Shown: positions 8,335 through 52,190, counted from the stretch's first letter. The stretch is DNA of 64,000 nt from Mobula hypostoma (GCF_963921235.1 NC_086097.1:39496001-39560000); one strand, 5' to 3'. Notes: generated by a model from the letters alone, not told the origin. Program-made: numbers and translations.

Positions 8335-10780
8335 AGCATAGAATATAGAACAGTGCAGCTCAGTACGGGCTCTTTGGCATACAATGTTGTGTTGACCCAT
8401 ATAAACCTTCTTCTCAATCAGCCTATGCCTTCCCTCCTACACAGCCCATAATATTCCATTTTTCTTACATCAATGTCCCTATCTAAGAGTGTCTTAGATG
8501 TCCCTTCTGTATCAGCCTCTTCCATCACCTCTGGCAGTGCGTACCAGGTAACTACCACTCCATGTAAAAAAAAAATTCCTCTGACTTCTCCCCGAAACTT
8601 TCCTCCACTCTCCTACGATGGACGTCCTCTGGAATTGGGCATTGCTGCCTGGGGGAAAAAACTGCCTATCTTTTCCCCTTATTATCCTATACACCTATCT
8701 CAAGTCACCTCTCATTCTCCTTCACTCCAAAGAGAAATACCCTAGCTCACCCAACCTTTTCTCATAAGTCATGCTCTCCAATCCAGATAGCATCCTTGTA
8801 AATCTCATCTGCACCCTTACTAAATTTTCCACATATTTCCTATAATGAGGCAACCAGAACTGAACACAATAATCCAAGTGTGGACTAACCAGAGTTTTAT
8901 AGAGCTGCTCTTGAACTCAGGCCCCTGACTACACAACTTCTTAAACCCTCTACTAACTTGTGTGGCAACTTTGAGGAATCAATGGACCTAGGCCCCAAGA
9001 TCCCTTTGTTCCTCCACACTGCTATGAGTCTTCTACTTTGCCTTCAGATTTGATCTTCTGAAGTGTATCACTTCAGACTTTCCCATATGGAAGTCCATCT
9101 GCCATTTCTCTGTCCTGCTCATGTATTAGAACATGTATTAGCAGTGGCTGATTGGCAGGAGGGAAAGAGCGGGAATAAAGAGAGCCCTTTCTGTTTGGCT
9201 GTAGGTGATTAGTGCTGTTCCATAGGGGTCTGTGTTGCGACTGATTCTTTTTATGTTATATGTCAATAATTTGTATGATGGTATTGATGGCTTTGTGGCC
9301 ATGTTTGCGGACAATATGAAGATAGAGGGAGGGGCGGGTAGTGTTGAGGATTCAGGGAGGCTACAGAAGGACTTAGACAGATTAGGAGAAAGGGCGAAGA
9401 AGTGGCAGATGGAATACAATTTCAGTAAGTGTATGGTCATACACTTTGGTAGAAGAAATAAAAACATGGATTATTTTATAAATGGAGAGAAAATTCAAAA
9501 GTCTGAGGTGCAAAGGGACTTGGGAGTCCTCATGTAGGTTGAGTTGGTGGTGAGGAAGGCAAATGCAATGTTAGTATTCATTTTGATAGGATTAAAATAT
9601 AAAAGTAAGGATGTAATGTTAAAGCTCTGTAAGACACTGGTGAGACCCCATTTGGAGTATTTTGAGCAGTTCTGGGGCCCTTATCTAAGAAAGGATGTGC
9701 TTACATTGCAGAGGGTTCAAAGGATGTTCATGAAAATGGTTCCTGGATTGAAAGGCTTATTATATGAGGAATGTTTGATAGCTCTGGGCCTGTACTCACT
9801 CTAATTCAAAAGAATGAGGGGAGATTTCATTGAAACCTGTCGAGTATTGAAAGGCCTTGTTAGAGTAGTTTTGGAGGAGGTGTTTTCCTATGGTGTGGGA
9901 GCCTAAGACCAGAGGATGTCCCTCTATTCAGCCTCAGGATAGAGGGGCATCCATTTAGAAACAGAGATGAAAAGGATTTTCTTCAGTCATAGAGTGGTAA
10001 ATCAGTGGAATTTGATGCCTCAGGTGCCTATGGAAGTCAAGTCATTGGGTATAATTAAGGCAGAGGTTGATAGATTCTTGATTAGTCAGGGCATGAAGGG
10101 TTATGGGAAAAGGCAGGAGAATGGGGCTGAGAGGGAAATAGATCAGCCATTATGAAATGGTGGAACAGATTCGATGGGCCAAATGGCTTAATTCTGCTCC
10201 TATATCTTATGGTCTATATCCCCTTGTAACCTATGATAAACCTACGCTTTCCACAGCACCACCAACCTTCATGTCATCTGCAAACTTACTTCCACTTCCT
10301 CGTCCAAGTCATTTATAAAAAGCACAAAGAGCAGGGGTCTTAGAACAGATCCCTGAGGAACACCACTAGTCACTGACCTCCAGGGAGAATGCATTCCACC
10401 TACTGCCGCTCATTCCCATCTGTGGGTAATCAAGGCAAACCACGTGGCCATGTTTCCATGTTTCCCATGCTTCGTGGCTTTCTCAATGAGCCTACCATGG
10501 GAAACCTTATCAGATGCATTACTAAAATCCATCATCAGCACGTCCACCACTCTATTTTCATCAACTTATTTTGTCACCAACTCAAAATTTCACTCGGGGT
10601 CGTGTCATATGACCTGCCCCTCACAATGCCATGCTGACTATCCCTAATAAGACTATGCTTCTCCAAATGCTTGTAAATCCTGCTCCTAAGAATCCGCTCC
10701 AATAGTTTTCCCACCATTGACATAAGAATCACTGGTGTATAATGCCTAGGATTATCCCTATTACCTTTTTTGAACAACAG
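8335..10780 (-). mobile_element. CR1 LINE RT and 3' end, interrupted by an opposite-strand CR1
   Basis: Minus-strand LFKKGNRDNPRHYTPVILMSMVGKLLE..SQHG. The sequence resumes collinearly after the 9135-10215 insert. Tail near 8335. Confidence 0.8.
9135..10215 (+). mobile_element. 5'-truncated CR1 LINE
   Basis: AMFADNMKI, DLDRLGERAKKWQMEYN, LVRPHLEY; tcttatggtc tail. Confidence 0.9.
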
Positions 10781-21520: not shown

Positions 21521-23044
21521 GGTTTAAATAGGTTTTTTGCATCTGTATTTACTAAGGAAGCTGGCATGAAATCTATGGAATTGAGGGAATCAAGTAGTGA
21601 GACCATGGAAACTGTACAGATTGAAAAGGAGGAGGTGCTTGCTGTCTTGAGGAAAATTAAAGTGGATAAATCCCCGGGACCTGACAGAGTGTTCCCTCGG
21701 ACCTTGAAGGAGACTAGTGTTGAAATTGCGGGGGCCCTGGCAGAAATATTTAAAATGTCGCTGTCTACGGGTGAAGTGCCGGAGGATTGGAGAGTGGCTC
21801 ATGTTGTTCCGTTGTTTAAGAAAGGATCAAAAAGTAATCCGGGAAATTATAGGCCGGTGAGTTTAACGTCAGTAGTAGGTAAGTTATTGGAGGGAGTACT
21901 AAGAGACAGAATCTACAAGCATTTGGATAGACAGGGGCTTATTAGGGAGAGTCAACATGGCTTTGTGCGTGGTAGGTCATGTTTGACCAATCTGTTGGAG
22001 TTTTTCGAGGAGGTTACCAGGAAAGTGGATGAAGGGAAGGCAGTGGATATTGTCTACATGGACTTCAGTAAGGCCTTTGACAAGGTCCCACATGGGAGGT
22101 TAGTTAGGAAAATTCAGTCGCTAGGTATACATGGAGAGGTGGTAAATTGGATTAGACATTGGCTCGATGGAAGAAGCCAGAGAGTGGTGGTAGAGAATTG
22201 CTTCTCTGAGTGGAGGCCTGTGACTAGTGGTGTGCCACAGGGATCAGTGCTGGGTCCATTGTTATTTGTCATCTATATCAATGATCTGGATGATAATGTG
22301 GTAAATTGGATCAGCAAGTTTGCTGATGATACAAAGATTGGAGGTGTAGTAGACAGTGAGGAAGGTTTTCAGAGCCTGCAGAGGGACTTGGACCAGCTGG
22401 AAAAATGGGCTGAAAAATGGCAGATGGAGTTTAATACTGACAAGTGTGAGGTATTGCACGTTGGAAGGACAAACCAACGTAGAACATACAGGGTTAATGG
22501 TAAGGCACTGAGGAGTGCAGTGGAACAGAGGGATCTGGGAATACAGATACAAAATTCCCTAAAAGTGTCGTCACAGGTAGATAGGGTCGTAAAGAGAGCT
22601 TTTGGTACATTGGCCTTTATTAATCGAAGTATTGAGTATAAGAGCTGGAATGTTATGATGAGGTTGTATAAAGCATTGGTGAGGCCGAATCTGGAGTATT
22701 GTGTTCAGTTTTGGTCACCAAATTACAGGAAGGATATAAATAAGGTTGAAAGAGTGCAGAGAAGGTTTACAAGGATGTTGCCGGGACTTGAGAAACTCAG
22801 TTACGGAGAAAGGTTGAATAGGTTAGGACTTTATTCCCTGGAGCGTAGAAGAATGAGGGGAGATTTGATAGAGGTATATAAAATTATGATGGGTATAGAT
22901 AGAGTGAATGCAAGCAGTCTTTTTCCACTGAGGCAAAGGGAGAAAAAAACCAGAGGACATGGGTTAAGGGTGAGGGGGGAAAAGTTTAAAGGGAACATTA
23001 GGGGGGGGCTTCTTCACACAGAGAGTGGTGGGAGTATGGAATGA
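21521..23044 (+). CDS. CR1 ORF2 reverse transcriptase domain (no endonuclease; +1 shift near C-terminus)
   Basis: [42 protein letters not shown]. The G8 run at 23001-23008 shifts the final FFTQRVV..WD* segment out of frame. Confidence 0.88.
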   Translation, partial: GLNRFFASVFTKEAGMKSMELRESSSETMETVQIEKEEVLAVLRKIKVDKSPGPDRVFPRTLKETSVEIAGALAEIFKMSLSTGEVPEDWRVAHVVPLFKKGSKSNPGNYRPVSLTSVVGKLLEGVLRDRIYKHLDRQGLIRESQHGFVRGRSCLTNLLEFFEEVTRKVDEGKAVDIVYMDFSKAFDKVPHGRLVRKIQSLGIHGEVVNWIRHWLDGRSQRVVVENCFSEWRPVTSGVPQGSVLGPLLFVIYINDLDDNVVNWISKFADDTKIGGVVDSEEGFQSLQRDLDQLEKWAEKWQMEFNTDKCEVLHVGRTNQRRTYRVNGKALRSAVEQRDLGIQIQNSLKVSSQVDRVVKRAFGTLAFINRSIEYKSWNVMMRLYKALVRPNLEYCVQFWSPNYRKDINKVERVQRRFTRMLPGLEKLSYGERLNRLGLYSLERRRMRGDLIEVYKIMMGIDRVNASSLFPLRQREKKTRGHGLRVRGEKFKGNIRGGLLHTESGGSME

Positions 23045-23235
23045 GCTGCCAGACGAGGTGGTAAATGTGGGTTCTTTTTTAACATTTAAGAATAAATTGG
23101 ACAGATACATGGATGGGAGGTGTATGGAGGGATATGGTCCGTGTGCAGGTCAGTGGGACTAGGCAGAAAATGGTTCGGCACAGCCAAGAAGGGCCAAAGG
23201 GCCTGTTTCTGTGCTGTAGTTTCTATGGTTCTATG
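21521..23235 (+). mobile_element. Young 5'-truncated CR1 LINE inserted in an older repeat (21300-21520 and 23236-23418)
   Basis: Long open RT frame and ttctatgg tail. The flanks look like two halves of the repeat family seen at 5620-7400. Confidence 0.93.
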
Positions 23236-33840: not shown

Positions 33841-35924
33841 TGTTTTAAAGGAATATGCAATAGTTGCTATAATGTAAGCATCTATTTCTTTTCAAGCAAT
33901 GATCCCACTCCCACGTATGCACATCGTTCGCTCTCTTGCTGTAATGTGAATACGCCAGTTTAAGCCATCTCCCGCATGCATGCTTTTATTTAATATATAT
34001 GTATTTGTGCACAGACACAACAGTTGTTTCACTGCAGTTGATGTTATGATGCATTAAATGTGCCTGATAAACACATTTATAACGGAGACTTAGGTTTTCC
34101 TTCTGGTTAGCAACTTATTTACTTAAGAGTGGATTTGGGTCACCAGAGGAGGGGGGGGGCCACTCAATAGCTAGTCTTCTTTTTCTCAAATGCTGAGAAA
34201 TCATTCTATTTTTACTTCAGATTTTACGCATACATAATTTATTCTCTTTTGCTATCTTTTTGTTTGTTCATTCATTCGGAAGGTGTGGGCATCCCTTTTT
34301 TAACTTGCGTGGGAGGGAAAGGTTAGATTGACCTTGGACTAAGTTGAAGTGTTGGCAGCACATCATTGGCCAAAGGTCGGTACTGTGCATTACTGTTCCC
34401 CGACCCCGAGTTATAGTCTCTCCTACCAGTGGAAACAACTTCCTTTCCTCCATCTTATTATTTTTATAACCTTTAACTCCTGTTCTAATCGCTGCTTTTT
34501 GATTCACTCCATCTTTCAACCTTGTTCTCTTGCTTGCATTATTTATGTTGCAATCTTCTCTACAATAGGACATTGGGTACACACATTCTTAATATTACTG
34601 CTCTCACTGTATCTGTGTATAGCATTCTACATCACCCGTCTTTGAACCACAGATTTCTTTTCCTTAACTTATTTGTCCTTTGCCAATTGACCCTTGGCTC
34701 ACTCAACAATGCAGAGCTTATTGCCTTTGGCGTTCTGTTTCTTACTGACTATACAGAACCTCTTTGCTTGTCCTGCCTATGTCTCTGGTACCTGCATGTA
34801 CACAAATCTTCCCCACCCCACCGTAAATTTTAACCAGCCCTGAAAGGATATGTCAAACCCTGGCACCATGCCAGAAACACAACCTTGGAGGAATAGAGCA
34901 TGGAAGCAGTTCTTCGGCCCATTGACTCTGTGTCTATGTTCAGCCACCCATTTACTTTAATCCAATATTAACACAGTTTTTACTTTCCTTATATTCTTCT
35001 GAATTCTTGCTCTTTGCTGCAGAGAACAGGACCTATCCTCCTCACTACAATGTCCCCTGCAAACTTGTTTGTTCCTTCCACTGAAATAGCCTCCATTATG
35101 GTGGTATCAGTTAATTCAACCACTACTCTTGTTCAACCAAGATGAAATGAGATCAGATCCTACGAGGTAGTTGTAAATGTTCTGGCTCTTGCTCTCTTGC
35201 CCTCTTGATCTCCTTTCCTGTCTCGTCTACTGACACAGTGCCCTGTCCCTGTCAAATGATCCAGCGTGAAGACCCTACCTTCAGAGGTGTACCTGCTTTA
35301 GCCACCAAATGTCTGGGTAACTCACCTCACCTTTATGTTTTTCAGTGTCTGTAGTTCCACCTTCAGTTTACTGTCTCGGAGCCACATCAATGACATACTT
35401 GAACGTGGTGAATACTTTCTGGTGTCTCCCTGTTATCTTATCAGAACTGTTTCTCAAACTTTATTGATCCAGGAGGAGTCGATGGGACTTTGGTACATGG
35501 TTGATGTACTGAAGGGTTTGTTTCCATGTTGTATTTGTGTGGATGGCAAAATTACGCAAATGGAGTGATACAATTACAGAATTCAGATATTCCCATTTTC
35601 CAATAGCAAAGCATTTGAAATCTTTTCCTTGGATACTTCACTGCTTTTCATATCCTTGTGTAACTGGAATATTGTGTCACACAGATCCGAGCATTGCGTG
35701 AAACTTTCTAAAATTGAAAGTATGCAACATTCTAGGATTTAGGAATTTTGTCAAAGCAACACACATGAAATGCTGGAGGAACTCCAGACAGCAGCTATGG
35801 AAATGAGTAGAATCAGCAGTTGGACCATGATCCTTAATCAGGAATTTTATTTTCAATTCTTCAGGGAAAGATTCATTGGATGGGGTCCTCTCTTCTACAA
35901 CCATCTTCCACACGGTTACTTAAT

Positions 35925-45199: not shown

Positions 45200-45799
45200 A
45201 TGAGAAGGGGGACAGGGGACGCCCACGGTGACCGGGTCTCTGGCACTGAGCCTGGCGCTGTTGTGCAGGAGAGGAGGAGGGAGAAGAGAAATGCGGTAGT
45301 CGTGGGGGATTCCATAGTCAGGGGAACAGACAGGAGATTCTGTGAGCCTGACAGAGATACCCGCATGGTGTGTTGCCTCCCAGGTGCCAGGGTACGGGAT
45401 GTCTCGGATCAGGTCCTGAATATTCTAAAGGGGGAGGGTGAGCAGCCAGTTGTCTTGGTACATGTTGGTACCAATGACGTAGATAGGACAAAGGAGGAGG
45501 TCCTGAAGAGAGATTTCCAGGAGTTAGGAAGGAAGCTGAGAAGCAGGACCTCCAGGGTAGTAATCTCGGGATTGCTACCTGTGCCACGTGCTAGCGAGGG
45601 CAAGAGTAGTCGGATCAGGCAGATAAATGCGTGGCTGAGAGACTGGTGTAGGGGGCAGGGCTTCAGATTCTTTGATAATTGGGACCTTTTCTGGGGGAGG
45701 TATGACCTGTTCAAAAAGGACAGGTTACACCTGAACCCGAAGGGGACCAATATCCTGGCGGGAAGGTTTAATAGAGCTGTTAGGGAGGGTTTAAACTAA
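45200..45799 (+). CDS. CR1 ORF1 SGNH/GDSL esterase-like domain (5'-truncated)
   Basis: VVVGDSIVR, LPGARV, HVGTND, KDRLHLN blocks. Confidence 0.88.
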   Translation: MRRGTGDAHGDRVSGTEPGAVVQERRREKRNAVVVGDSIVRGTDRRFCEPDRDTRMVCCLPGARVRDVSDQVLNILKGEGEQPVVLVHVGTNDVDRTKEEVLKRDFQELGRKLRSRTSRVVISGLLPVPRASEGKSSRIRQINAWLRDWCRGQGFRFFDNWDLFWGRYDLFKKDRLHLNPKGTNILAGRFNRAVREGLN

Positions 45800-48700
45800 T
45801 TTGGCAGGGGGATGGGAACTGGAATGATAGAGCGGAGGAAGGGGAAAACAGAAATAAATCTAAGATAGTGAGCAGTAAAGATGTCAGGAAAGACAGGCAG
45901 GTGATGGGGCAAATTTGTAGCCATTGGGATGAGTTGCAGTGCAATAAAGTTGCAGTGAAATCAAAGCAAAAAGAATCAAATACTGGTCTTAAGGTGTTGT
46001 ACTTAAATGCACGCAGCATAAGGAATAAGGTGGATGATCTTGTACAGCTACAGATTGGCAGGTATGATATTGTGGCCATCACTGAGACCTGGCTAAAGGA
46101 TACATGTCTCTGGGAGCTGAACATCCAAGGATACACGGTGTATCGGAAGGATAGGAAGGTAGGCAGAGGGGGAGGCGTGGCTTTATTGGTAAGAAATTAT
46201 ATTAAATCATTAGAAAGAGGTGATATAGGATCGGAAGGTGCAGAATCTTTATGGGTTGAGCTAAGAAATAGCAGGGGTAAAAGGACCCTGATGGCAGTTA
46301 TTAATAGGCCTCTAAACAGCTGTAGGGATGTGGACTACAAATTACAACTGGAAATAGAAAAGGCTTGTCAGAAGAGCAGTGTTATGATAATTGTGGGGGA
46401 TTTTAACTTGCGAGTAGATTGGGAAAATCAGGTCAGCACAGGATCTCAAGAGAGAGAATTTGTAGAATGTCTGCGAGATGGCTTTTTAGAACAGCTTGTT
46501 GTTGAGCCTACTAGGAGATCGGCTGTACTGGATTGGGTATTGTGGAATGAACCGGAGGTGATTGGAGAGATTGAGATGAAGGAACCCTTAGGAGGCAATG
46601 ATCACAACATGATTGAGTTCACTGTGAAATTAGGAAAAGAGAAGCCGAAATCTGATGTGTCGGTATTTCAGTGGAGTAAAGGAAATTACAGTGGTATGAG
46701 AGAGGAACTGGCCAAAGTTGACTGGAAAGAGACACTGGCGGGAAAGACAGCAGAGCAGCAGTGGCTGGAGTTTATGCAAGAAATGAGGAATGTGCAAGAC
46801 AGGTATATTCCAAAAAAGAAGAAATTTTCGAGTGGAAAAAGGATGCAACCGTGGTTGACAAGAGAAGTCAAAGCCAAAGTTAAAGCAAAAGAGAAGGCAT
46901 ACAAGGAAGCAAAAATTAGTGGGAAGAGAGAGGATTGGGAAGTTTTTAAAACCTTACAAAAGGAAACCAAGAAGGTCATTAAGAGAGAATAGATTAACTA
47001 TGAAAGGAAGCTAGCAAATAATATCGAAGAGGATACTTAAGCTTTTTCAAGTATATAAAGAGTAAAAGACAGGTGAGAGTAGATATAGGACCGATAGAAA
47101 ATGATGCTGGAGAAATTGTAATGGGAGATGAGGAGATGGCAGAGGAACTGAACAAGTATTTTGCATCAGTCTTCACTGAGGAAGACAGCAGTATACCGGA
47201 CACTCAAGGGTGGCAGGGAAGAGAAGTGTGTGCAGTCACAATTACGACAGAGAAAGTACTCAGGAAGCTGAATAGGCTAAAGGTAGATAAATCTCCTGGA
47301 CCAGATGGAATGCACCCTCGTGTTCTGAAGGAGGTAGCTGTGGAGATTGCGGAGGTATTAGCGATGATCTTTCAAAAGTCGATAGATTCTGGCATGGTTC
47401 CGGAGGACTGGAAGATTGCAAATGTCGCTCTGCTATTTAAGAAGGGGGCAAGGAAGCAAAAAGGAAATTATAGACCTGTTAGCTCGATATCTGTGGTTGA
47501 GAAGTTGTTGGAGTCGATTGTCAAGGATGAGGTTACAGAGTACCTGAGGCATATGACAAGATAGGCAGAACTCAGCATGGATTCCTTAAAGGAAAATCCT
47601 GCCTGACAAACCTATTACAATTTTTTGAGGAAATTACCAGTAGGCTAGATAAGGGAGATGTAGTGGATGTTGTATATTTGGATTTTCAGAAGGCCTTTGA
47701 CAAGGTGCCACACATGAGGCTACTTAACAAGATAAGAGCCCATGGAATTACGGGAACGTTACATACGTGGATAGAGCGTTGGCTGATTGGCAGGAAACAG
47801 AGAGTGGGAATAAAGGGATCCTATTCTGGTTGGCTGCCAGTTACCAGTGGTGTTCCGCAGGGATCAGTGTTGGGGCTGCTTCTTTTTACATTGTACATCA
47901 ATGATTTAGATTATGGAATAGATGGCTTTGTGGCTAAGTTTGCTGATGATACGAAGATAGGTGGAGATAGTGCTGAGGAAACGGAGAGTCTGCAGAGAGA
48001 CTTGGATAGATTGGAAGAATGGGCAGAGAATGGCAAATGAAGTACCATGTTGGAAAGTGTATGGTTATGCACTTTGGCAGAAAAAATAAATGGGCAGACT
48101 ATTATTTAAATGGAGAAAGAATTCAAAGTTCTGAGATGCGACGGGACTTGGGAGTCCTCGTACAGGATACCCTTAAAGTTAACCTCCAGGTTGAGTCAGT
48201 AGTGAAGAAGGCGAATGCAATGTTGGCATTCATTTCTAGAGGAGTAGAGTATAGGAGCAGGGATGTGATGTTGAGGCTCTATAAGGCGCTGGTGAGACCT
48301 CACTTGCAGAACTGTGGGCAGTTTTGGTTTCCTTATTTAAGAAAGGATGTGCTGACGTTGGAGAGGGTACAGAGAAGATTCACTAGAATGATTCTGGGAA
48401 TAAGAGGGTTAACATATGAGGAACGTTTGTCCGCTCTTGGACTGTATTCCTTGGAGTTTAGAAGAATGAGGGGAGTCCTCATAGAAACATTTCGAATGTT
48501 AAAAGGTATGGACAGAGTGGATGTGGCAAAGTTGTTTCCCATGATGAGGGAGTCTAGTACGAGAGGGCGTGACTTAAGGATTGAAGGGGGCCCTTTCAGA
48601 ACAGAAATGCGAAGAAATTTTTTTAGTCAGAGGGTGGTGAATCTATCGAATTTGTTGCCACGGGCAGCAGTGGAGGCCAAGTCATTGGGTGTATTTAAGG

Positions 48701-48870
48701 CAGAGATTGATAGGTATCTGAGTAGCCAGGGCATTAAAGGTTATGGTGAGAAGGCAGGGGAGTGGGACTAAATAGGAGAAAATGGATCAGCTCATGATAA
48801 AATGGCGGAGCAGACTCGATGGGCCGAATGGCCTACTTCTGCTCCTTTGTCTTATGGTCTTATGGTCTTA
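45215..48870 (+). mobile_element. Near-full-length CR1 LINE (ORF1 C-terminal half, ORF2, tail)
   Basis: Esterase, APE and RT domains in order; (tcttatgg)n tail. Confidence 0.95.
45784..48771 (+). pseudogene. CR1 ORF2 (APE endonuclease plus RT) with a stop and frameshifts
   Basis: [54 protein letters not shown]. Breaks near 46990, 47040, 47550 and 48030. Confidence 0.92.
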
Positions 48871-50179: not shown

Positions 50180-52190
50180 TATTGAATTGAATTGACTTTA
50201 TTACTTACATCCTTTACATATATGAGGAGTAAAAATCTTTACGTTACTTCTCTGTTTAAATGTGCAATGTGCAATCGTAGTAATTTATAATGGTTTATAA
50301 TAAATAGAACAGTCAATTTAACATAGAAATACACTCAGAGTGAGTTAATTGGTCTGATGGCCTGGTGAAGAAGCTGTCCCGGAGCTTGTTGGTCCTGGCT
50401 TTTATGCTGCGGTACTGTTTCCTAGATGGTAGCAGCTGGAATAGATTGTGGTTGGGGTGACTCAGGTCCCCAGTGATCCTTTGGGCTCTTTTCTCACACC
50501 TGTCTTCGTAAATGTCCTGAATCATGGGAAGTTCACAACTGCAGATGCACTGGGCTGTCCGCATCACTCTCTGCAGAGTCCTGCGATTGAGGGGAGTACA
50601 GTTCCCTTACCAGGCAGTGATGCAGCCAGTCAGGATGCTCTCAATTGTGCCCCTGTAGAAGATTCTTAGGATTTGGGGGCCCATACCAAACTTCCTCAAG
50701 CGTCTGAGGTGAAAGAGGTGCTGTTGTGCCTTTTTCACCACACAGCTGGTGTGTACAGACCACGTGAGGTCCTCGGTGATGTGGATGCTGAGGAGCTTAA
50801 AGCTATTTACTCTCTCAACACCAGATCCATTGATGTCAATAGGGGTTAGCCCGACTCCATTCCTCCTGTAGTCCATAACCAACTCCTTTGTTTTTGCCAC
50901 ATTGAGGAGAGGTTGTTTTCTTGTCACCACTGTGTCAGTGAGATGACTTCTTCCCTGTAGGCCACCTCGTACTTTTGAGATAAGGCCAATCAATGCAGTG
51001 TTGTCGGCAAATTTAGTTAGCAGATTAGAGCTGTAGGTGGCGACACATTCATGGGTATACAGGGAGGGGACAGTAAAGGAGGGGACTACACAGCCCTGAG
51101 GGGCTCCTGTACTGAGAGTCAGAGGGTTGGAGGTGAGGGAGCCCACTCTTACAACCTGCTGGCAATCTGACTGGTAGTCCAGGATCCAGCTGCACAAGGC
51201 AGGGTCAAGGCCGTGATCTCTGAGCTTCTTATCGAGCCTGGATGGAACTATGGTGTTGAATGCTGAACTGTAGTCCAAGAACAGCACTCTCACATAAGCA
51301 TCCTTCTCCAGATGTGTAAGGGTGGTATGTAGAGCAGTGGCTATTGCGTCGTCTGTCGATCGGTTATGTTGGTAGGCGAATTGTAGGGGGTCCAGTTTGG
51401 GTGGTAGCAACCTGTAGGTGTAATCCTTGACCAGCCTCTCAAAGCATTTGCTTATTAATGAAGTGAGTGCGACAGGACGCCAGTCGTTCACGCATGTTAC
51501 CTTGGTCTTTTTTGGTACAGGAAGAATGGTGGATAATTTGAAGCAGGAGGGCACTCTACACTGGGAGAGGGAGAGATTAAAAATGTCAGTAAACACACCT
51601 GCCAGTTGTGCTGCGCACATCCTGAGTACTCGCCCTAGGCTGCCGTCCGGTAATGTCATATGTTGAAAGATTGGAGCGTCTGGGCTTGTATACGCTGGAA
51701 TTTAGAAGGATGAGAGGGGATCTGATTGAAACATATAAGATTATTAAGGGATTGGACACGCTAGAGGCAGGAAACATTTTCCCGATGTTGGGGGAGTCCA
51801 GAACCAGAGGCTACAGTTTAAGAATAAGGGGTAGGCCATTTAGAACAGAGTTGAGGAAAAACTTTTTCACACAGAGGGTTGTGGACCTATGGAATACTCT
51901 GCCTAAGAAGGCAGTGGAGGCCAATTCTCTGGATTCTTTCAAGAAAGAGTTAGATAGCGCTCTTAAAGATAGCGGATTCAAGGGATATGGGGAGAAGGCA
52001 GGAACAGGGTACTGATTGTGGATGATCAGCCATGATCACAGTTAATGGTGGTGCTGGCTCGAAGGGCCGAATGGCCTACTCCTGCACCTATTGTCTATTG
52101 TCCCGCAGCCTTGCGACTGTCCACTCATTGGAAACATCTGTGTACCTCAGCCTCAGAGATGACCAGATTGCAGGTTATAGGGGTGGCTTT
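50180..52190 (-). mobile_element. Rex1/Babar LINE (second family) interrupted by a CR1
   Basis: [32 protein letters not shown]. The KAAG-PDG motif is split at ~51650/52100. (aattg)n tail at ~50185. Confidence 0.9.
51651..52100 (+). mobile_element. CR1 3' fragment nested in Rex1
   Basis: Intact C-terminal ORF ([21 protein letters not shown]..); (ctattgt)n tail. Confidence 0.9.

Follow-up and report, generated by a model that had tools for sequence, protein, structure and literature searches.

A candidate −1 ribosomal frameshift signal at the ORF1/ORF2 junction of esterase-encoding CR1-type LINEs

A 64,000-nucleotide stretch of the Mobula hypostoma genome (GCF_963921235.1 NC_086097.1:39496001-39560000; hereafter the window) carries a CR1-type long interspersed element (LINE) whose first open reading frame (ORF1) encodes an SGNH/GDSL esterase and ends on a slippery heptamer, U_UUA_AAC. 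One base back, the −1 frame leads into the endonuclease of ORF2. This slippery junction is a real feature. Comparison with relatives suggests that a programmed −1 frameshift probably yields ORF1p together with a minor ORF1p-ORF2p fusion, and is the main route to ORF2 in esterase CR1-type LINEs. (LINE ORF2 is generally attributed to unconventional reinitiation; PMC2881922.)

ORF1 closes with the codons GAG GGT TTA AAC TAA (45785-45799, + strand). The main heptamer, U_UUA_AAC (45790..45796, +), encodes the final two ORF1 residues, Leu-Asn, in the phase X XXY YYZ, and overlaps a second phased heptamer, G_GGU_UUA (45787..45793, +), just upstream. The stop codon UAA (45797-99) adjoins the main heptamer, and forms part of a 6-nt spacer (45797..45802, +). 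The −1 frame is closed by TAG at 45781-83, opens at 45784, and then runs without a stop for 402 codons, through the APE endonuclease (Pfam Exo_endo_phos), to 46992. Both heptamers, with their codons, and the extent of the open frame are as an initial annotation of this DNA had described them. Phased heptamers occupy 9 of the 1703 codon positions (0.5%) in the window's CR1 frames, both junction heptamers counted, so chance is unlikely to have put one on ORF1's last sense codon. The same −1 phase into ORF2 recurs in the related proteins P0052, P0071, P0163, P0229, and P0285. The junction therefore has two features of a canonical −1 signal: a phased heptamer before the zero-frame stop, and an open −1 frame into a conserved downstream protein.

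In the proposed mechanism, ribosomes at the last ORF1 codons (UUA, AAC) would mostly terminate at the adjoining UAA, freeing ORF1p. A minority would slip one base back on U_UUA_AAC and translate a variable linker, the endonuclease, and the reverse transcriptase, producing an ORF1p-ORF2p fusion in the manner of retroviral Gag-Pol. The pause would probably come from a G-rich tract 6 nt downstream, the adjoining stop codon, or both. Here we infer the ribosomal shift, its frequency, and its stimulator.

Conservation of the ORF1 carboxyl terminus was evaluated in two protein sets. Among 120 homologs collected initially, 70 contain the DxxH motif followed by a tail of ≤35 residues, and 49 of these 70 end in LN; named records with this ending come from rays, skates, sharks, Latimeria, Hyla, Zootoca, Macrochelys, Varanus, Hirundo, and Gopherus. 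A pooled set comprised 254 proteins, 190 of them with the motif and 173 with a tail of 22-45 residues (81 fragments, frameshifted, or long sequences were excluded). The terminal residue is N in 111 of the 173, and the residue before it is L (93), G (10), or K (3) in 106 of those 111. Only L, G, K, or P can be encoded by an XXA codon, and in protein bodies these four precede N only 20% of the time. Likewise, tripeptides that fit X XXY YYZ occupy 3.3% of body positions, yet form the end of 51/54 proteins in a fish and amphibian cluster, 14/15 in an amniote cluster, and 18/20 in a further cluster. The slippery signal thus seems to be family-wide, with relatives from sharks to birds. The initial annotation's "double" slippery site holds in part: U_UUA_AAC is conserved in relatives, but G_GGU_UUA is not general. 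Relatives vary in the residue before LN (G, A, S, Y, T, C, D, H, among others); G_GGU_UUA is possible with G alone, which precedes LN in 23 of the 99 LN tails in the full set.

A tree of 96 ORF1 proteins, dereplicated at 70%, reveals changes from one heptamer class to another. Tails were classed as LN (41), KN (14), GN (9), FL/FF-type (9), other (4), or none (19); the tail search window was lenient (22% by chance), and a few LN calls distant from the end are probably due to chance. The dipeptides LN, KN, GN, and FL/FF are those encoded by U_UUA_AAC, A_AAA_AAC, G_GGA_AAC, and U_UUU_UUA/C, respectively; the change away from LN is seen in the more distant clades. Sister sequences change class at one position: SGN* and SKN* (support 0.94), and QGN* and FLN*. 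Moreover, the preceding residue can supply the required first base in 41/41 LN, 11/11 GN, and 14/14 KN tails of the dereplicated set; the same test in protein bodies gives 62/76, 48/63, and 53/68, respectively (76-82%). Q predominates before GN and never precedes LN; the full set, with its 99 LN tails, contains a single exception to base supply, an E before LN. Within the KN clade, the dipeptide keeps a constant position and is followed by 0-15 variable residues. Class switching is the strongest sign that the constraint would act on RNA rather than on protein.

The clade of the zebrafish element ZfL2-1 (PDB 4c1b, E 6e-84) serves as a negative control. ZfL2-1, placed in the CR1 clade by PMC3905857, has a homologous SGNH esterase ORF1p that ends at the same helix. 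Unlike the window CR1, its cluster contains no slippery-compatible end (0/21), and it accounts, as one clade, for 8 of the 19 tails classed as none; PMC3905857 describes ZfL2-1 ORF1p as dispensable in HeLa cells. Four other proteins (P0243, P0209, P0173, and P0198) have QEN/LEN or SSN/VSN tails among GN- or LN-type sisters, and would fit the non-canonical heptamers G_GAA_AAC and U_UCA_AAC.

The DNA of the heptamer can be deduced for some families from copies frameshifted upstream, which supply the −1-frame peptide across the site and can be combined with intact relatives. P0052 (ETLN-type) and P0163 (Chrysemys picta) both read F-K-L in the −1 frame, which fixes the DNA of their families as T TTA AAY TAG, the two frames agreeing throughout the site; the longer two-frame overlaps contain 1 and 4 upstream conflicts, as expected between different copies. 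Leu is encoded by TTA in 18% of cases, and four-fold sites carry T in 24%, so agreement by chance has a probability of about 0.04 per family. By this deduction, the class switching, and the contig depth peak described below, the U_UUA_AAC heptamer appears to be kept beyond what the protein needs. From a skate copy (P0035, +1 frame), just the U preceding the Leu codon can be fixed. P0071 also reads F-K-L, and was not counted because it contains an indel at the site.

Two further proteins are natural fusions, in which ORF1 is joined to ORF2 at LN or KN: P0285, with esterase, APE, and reverse transcriptase in one frame, and P0229. Neither fixes the full heptamer, because an extra base sits at the site. 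Their linkers contain no Met between LN/KN and the first (N-terminal) APE strand, so in those copies initiation at AUG could not yield an entire endonuclease. The fifth −1-frame residue past the heptamer is Gly in the window copy, P0052, P0071, P0163, and P0285, which fits a conserved run of G.

A contig mapping provides a view of the junction at the nucleotide level. Two DNA runs contributed about 21,000 contigs each, aligned at 80% identity to 45600-46100. Summed contig word depth, a rough measure (and to that extent a caution against the reading proposed here), is highest of 30 bins at 45787-45803, at 3.1x and 3.7x the median, and falls to 18-30% of the peak in the bins that contain the downstream AUG discussed below. 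Among the 40 of 106 variants listed, none lies within 45783-45803. Loose contig ends indicate that other subfamilies share ~45772-45819 and then continue into different linkers; their alignments break off before 45772 and past 45817-30.

The candidate stimulator is a G-rich tract (45803..45844, +) that begins 6 nt past the heptamer. Its 45-nt window has the maximum G4Hunter score (1.36) of the 3.7-kb element, and the ViennaRNA gquad model places a two-tier G-quadruplex at 45803-45815. The deduced junction of the KN family forms a −13.9 kcal/mol hairpin immediately 3' of the site. The adjoining stop codon may also contribute to stimulation.

Several findings weigh against frameshifting as the main route to ORF2, and those on the stimulator may be taken together. 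No canonical three-tier quadruplex motif was found in the G-rich tract, two-tier patterns number 16 in the element, and position 45804 is C in 13-16% of the depth. (The G-rich tract is thus a weaker detail of the initial annotation, with the top G4Hunter score of the element and a predicted two-tier structure.) Folding of the downstream sequence revealed no significant hairpin or pseudoknot (against shuffles, the two shortest pieces score z +0.6 to +1.1), the longest local stem being 7 bp with G-U pairs included, so the usual stem-loop or pseudoknot 5-9 nt past the heptamer was not found. No long-range partner of the G-tract was found, the best duplex being no better than shuffles, and the KN-family hairpin is equalled by 59 of 300 shuffles. 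Because no hairpin or pseudoknot accompanies the heptamer, and the fusion product is a prediction, we do not class the junction as a canonical −1 signal.

The comparative evidence has its own weaknesses. The ORF1 sequences counted are kin, and so are not independent events. No canonical tripeptide ends 11 of the 87 proteins outside the ZfL2-1 clade, although two of those 11 end in EN, which would fit G_GAA_AAC. The upstream G_GGU_UUA is limited to some lineages, and the Met-free linkers are single copies from two more distant families. Evidence across families is mostly at the protein level: vertebrate CR1 junction DNA was not found in scans that gave 5 loci from metagenomes, 9 from prokaryote genomes, 1, 0, and 0 from viral contigs, 1 weak match from plasmids, 4 distant esterases from one genome, and none from 30 family genomes. 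Since no second intact ORF1/ORF2 junction was found within the 64-kb window either, the comparison rests on proteins plus the one contig mapping.

These points must be set against what other explanations would require. Termination-reinitiation of the L1 and SART1 type would have ribosomes stop at UAA and begin ORF2 either at AUG 45904 or on a codon other than AUG. On that view the conserved block might serve as a coupling signal, or the protein might require LN. Reinitiation is the standard model for bicistronic LINEs (PMC2881922, PMC5009743). The in-frame AUG cited as a caveat in the initial annotation is present (45904..45906, +), 34 codons before the first conserved APE Asn. Its first bases are shared (UGAUG, to 45906) with the stop of an ORF1-frame ORF of 7 codons (45881-45904), which resembles a stop-start overlap. 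That of SART1 is UAAUG. (An 18-codon ORF lies at 45812-45868.) Vertebrate-type linkers also often contain Met residues, at −34 from the APE Asn in the window copy, −32 and −28 in P0121, and −42 in P0123, with two in P0163; these count against frameshifting, and it is mainly on them and the in-frame AUG that reinitiation or mixed use can draw. Four full-length ORF2 proteins have Met residues 19-76 codons ahead of the APE Asn, although such records have an initial M by construction, and the Met is not at the same place in each. Chance alone would often put a Met in a linker of 60-70 codons. Against reinitiation, the ORF2 AUG is neither the first nor near the ORF1 stop: it lies 105 nt farther on, and three AUGs that are out of frame with it, in the frame of ORF1 (45812, 45824, and 45881), come earlier, the first of them in good context. 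The heptamer and its −1 phase are conserved in relatives, whereas the AUG ahead of the endonuclease varies in position among vertebrate-type linkers and is absent from P0285 and P0229. Finally, reinitiation and a protein requirement both leave unexplained why L, G, and K replace one another with a matching preceding residue, and why TTA is used in three families. We consider reinitiation unlikely.

A compromise is conceivable, in which the site is real and ancestral, vertebrate CR1 ORF2 is translated partly or mostly from a linker AUG, and frameshifting is minor. The Met residues in vertebrate-type linkers and the lack of a strong stimulator would fit, and the ZfL2-1 lineage illustrates that the signal can be lost. 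However, a relic should neither persist at synonymous positions from rays to turtles nor be the block best shared among subfamilies, and this version appears distinctly improbable. Still less credence attaches to the idea that the block is kept for a non-translational reason, such as a splice acceptor or an RNA-binding site, or by chance. The motif ACUAAU...CAG|G, visible at 45795-45808, does resemble a branch point plus acceptor, but the distance from branch to AG is ~8 nt, there is no pyrimidine tract, and the stop in other families is TAG rather than TAA; chance is excluded by the position and conservation of the heptamer. Programmed −1 frameshifting thus remains the probable explanation, and the esterase-APE-RT (reverse transcriptase) fusion suggested in the initial annotation is well supported in its core by the comparative evidence, with the product itself a prediction. 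A more ambitious version is possible and rather doubtful: that esterase CR1 LINEs have made a Gag-Pol-like reverse transcriptase fusion by −1 frameshifting since before the jawed-vertebrate split, cycling among U_UUA_AAC, G_GGA_AAC, A_AAA_AAC, and U_UUU_UUA between clades, with an RNA G-quadruplex as the vertebrate stimulator, and that all of this is unreported.

The heptamer U_UUA_AAC is the slippery site of the coronavirus ORF1a/1b junction, and −1 frameshifting is used for gag-pol expression by retroviruses and long terminal repeat (LTR) retrotransposons. The CR1 junction resembles these systems in its phased X XXY YYZ heptamer at the end of the upstream ORF, −1 overlap into the polymerase ORF, short spacer, and candidate stimulator. 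It differs in that CR1 is a non-LTR element, with an esterase ORF1p instead of Gag, a G-rich tract without a detected hairpin or pseudoknot, and a stop codon that adjoins the heptamer.

Another retroelement without LTRs offers a parallel. In two-ORF Penelope-like elements, ORF1 is described as separable by a frameshift with a pseudoknot (Fig. 1 legend of PMC8557442), and esterases occur in Penelope-like elements as well (PMC3905857). There too ORF1 is joined to reverse transcriptase by frameshifting, as proposed for CR1; Penelope-like elements have a GIY-YIG endonuclease and a pseudoknot, whereas CR1 has APE and no pseudoknot was found downstream of the site. L1 and SART1, whose ORF2 is translated by termination-reinitiation (PMC2881922), share with CR1 a bicistronic LINE RNA and the dependence of ORF2 on translation of ORF1. 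They make a separate ORF2p, whereas the CR1 ORFs overlap in the −1 frame at a slippery site and the predicted product is a fusion. For Paramecium non-LTR retrotransposons, recoding of ORF2 was proposed from consensus sequences (PMC5405496); this unrelated clade would use +1 frameshifting or reinitiation, or stop read-through.

In the literature as far as it was accessible, frameshifting has been published for Penelope-like elements, for HeT-A, and for Paramecium LINEs (+1, as an option), and no frameshift proposal for CR1 was found; the primary CR1 papers (Haas 1997, Kajikawa 1997, Kapitonov and Jurka 2003) and Repbase lie outside that body of text. A passing earlier suggestion in those sources is quite conceivable, though we lean slightly against it. 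CR1 is never named in the first 300,000 of the 449,034 characters of a 2016 frameshifting review (PMC5009743), and the word "frameshift" is absent from the available text of PMC4120745 and PMC3905857, whose searchable supplements contain no junction text. In the searchable supplements of PMC4316615 and PMC2817409, matches fall in the 3' part of ORF2 only, and the accessible passages of PMC2734521, PMC4255032, and PMC5408684 contain no CR1 frameshift proposal that we found. A lead that Dictyostelium TRE5-A requires a −1 frameshift was not confirmed: the available text of PMC5633606 describes only overlapping ORFs and has no instance of "frameshift".

The element itself occupies ~45212-48870 (+) and ends in a short 8-nt repeat. 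It is truncated inside ORF1, as similarity to ORF1 relatives begins at ~45212; the remaining 3' part of ORF1 (45212..45799, +) encodes the esterase domain (Pfam PF13472, E 2e-15). The closest ORF1 match is a Hypanus sabinus protein (85% identity across 45212-45796), and the other named near matches are from rays, skates, and sharks, which points to a cartilaginous fish as the host. The −1 frame (45784..46992, +) encodes a linker of ~65 residues and then, from ~45988, the APE endonuclease, and is cut short by a premature stop at 46990-92. The rest of ORF2, reverse transcriptase plus carboxyl terminus (47040..48765, +; RVT_1 E 1.6e-21, tblastn against P0121), is split over three frames, with frame changes at ~47043, ~47546, and ~48020. 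Given the premature stop and three frame changes, this copy is dead, and the frameshift claim therefore concerns the CR1 family rather than this copy. The 3' untranslated region (48766..48870, +) finishes with an 8-nt unit repeated at ~48850-48870, without poly(A). A short tandem repeat without poly(A) is the typical 3' end of CR1. Assignment as CR1-type rests on this terminus; on the order of APE and then reverse transcriptase in ORF2, collinear with full-length P0121; and on the SGNH esterase ORF1, one known ORF1 type, which has homologs in turtle, lizard, and bird records. (The tree was built from the esterase domain only.)

Other CR1 sequences are scattered through the window. A second ORF1 esterase relic (34638-35105, −) is heavily decayed and its junction unreadable, and an APE piece at 61.2-61.9 kb is truncated. 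At least nine more 5'-truncated CR1 pieces are present along with more distant reverse transcriptase fragments (including 21524-23156, 9145-10215, and 50559-51650); the piece at 21.5-23.0 kb retains an open reverse transcriptase frame of 507 codons.

Some related sequences appear under unexpected labels or in different arrangements. In a LINE-like sequence on a metagenome contig (L002:918-1744), the esterase ORF1 ends in UGA followed by CUA, and an endonuclease-like ORF continues in the same frame. UGA-CUA is a stop read-through context. Relatives may use read-through instead, and a Met is present before its endonuclease. Short contigs of a bacterial assembly (L017-L019, in G001) contain low-complexity ORFs of 800-820 aa or more with an esterase domain, two of them with identical terminal residues; these are probably eukaryotic retroelement ORF1s present as contamination. 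P0018 and P0071, shark-type CR1 ORF1 esterases, are publicly labelled as SGNH hydrolases of Pseudomonas aeruginosa and Proteus mirabilis, again probably through contamination.

CR1 is the most abundant transposed element among birds, crocodilians, and turtles as well as snakes, according to PMC4316615. If frameshifting is indeed its route to ORF2, then the active CR1 enzyme would be an esterase-endonuclease-reverse transcriptase fusion, produced in constant proportion to ORF1p. Annotation of CR1 ORF2 and the design of CR1 constructs would change accordingly. Moreover, the esterase would be tied directly to the integration machinery.

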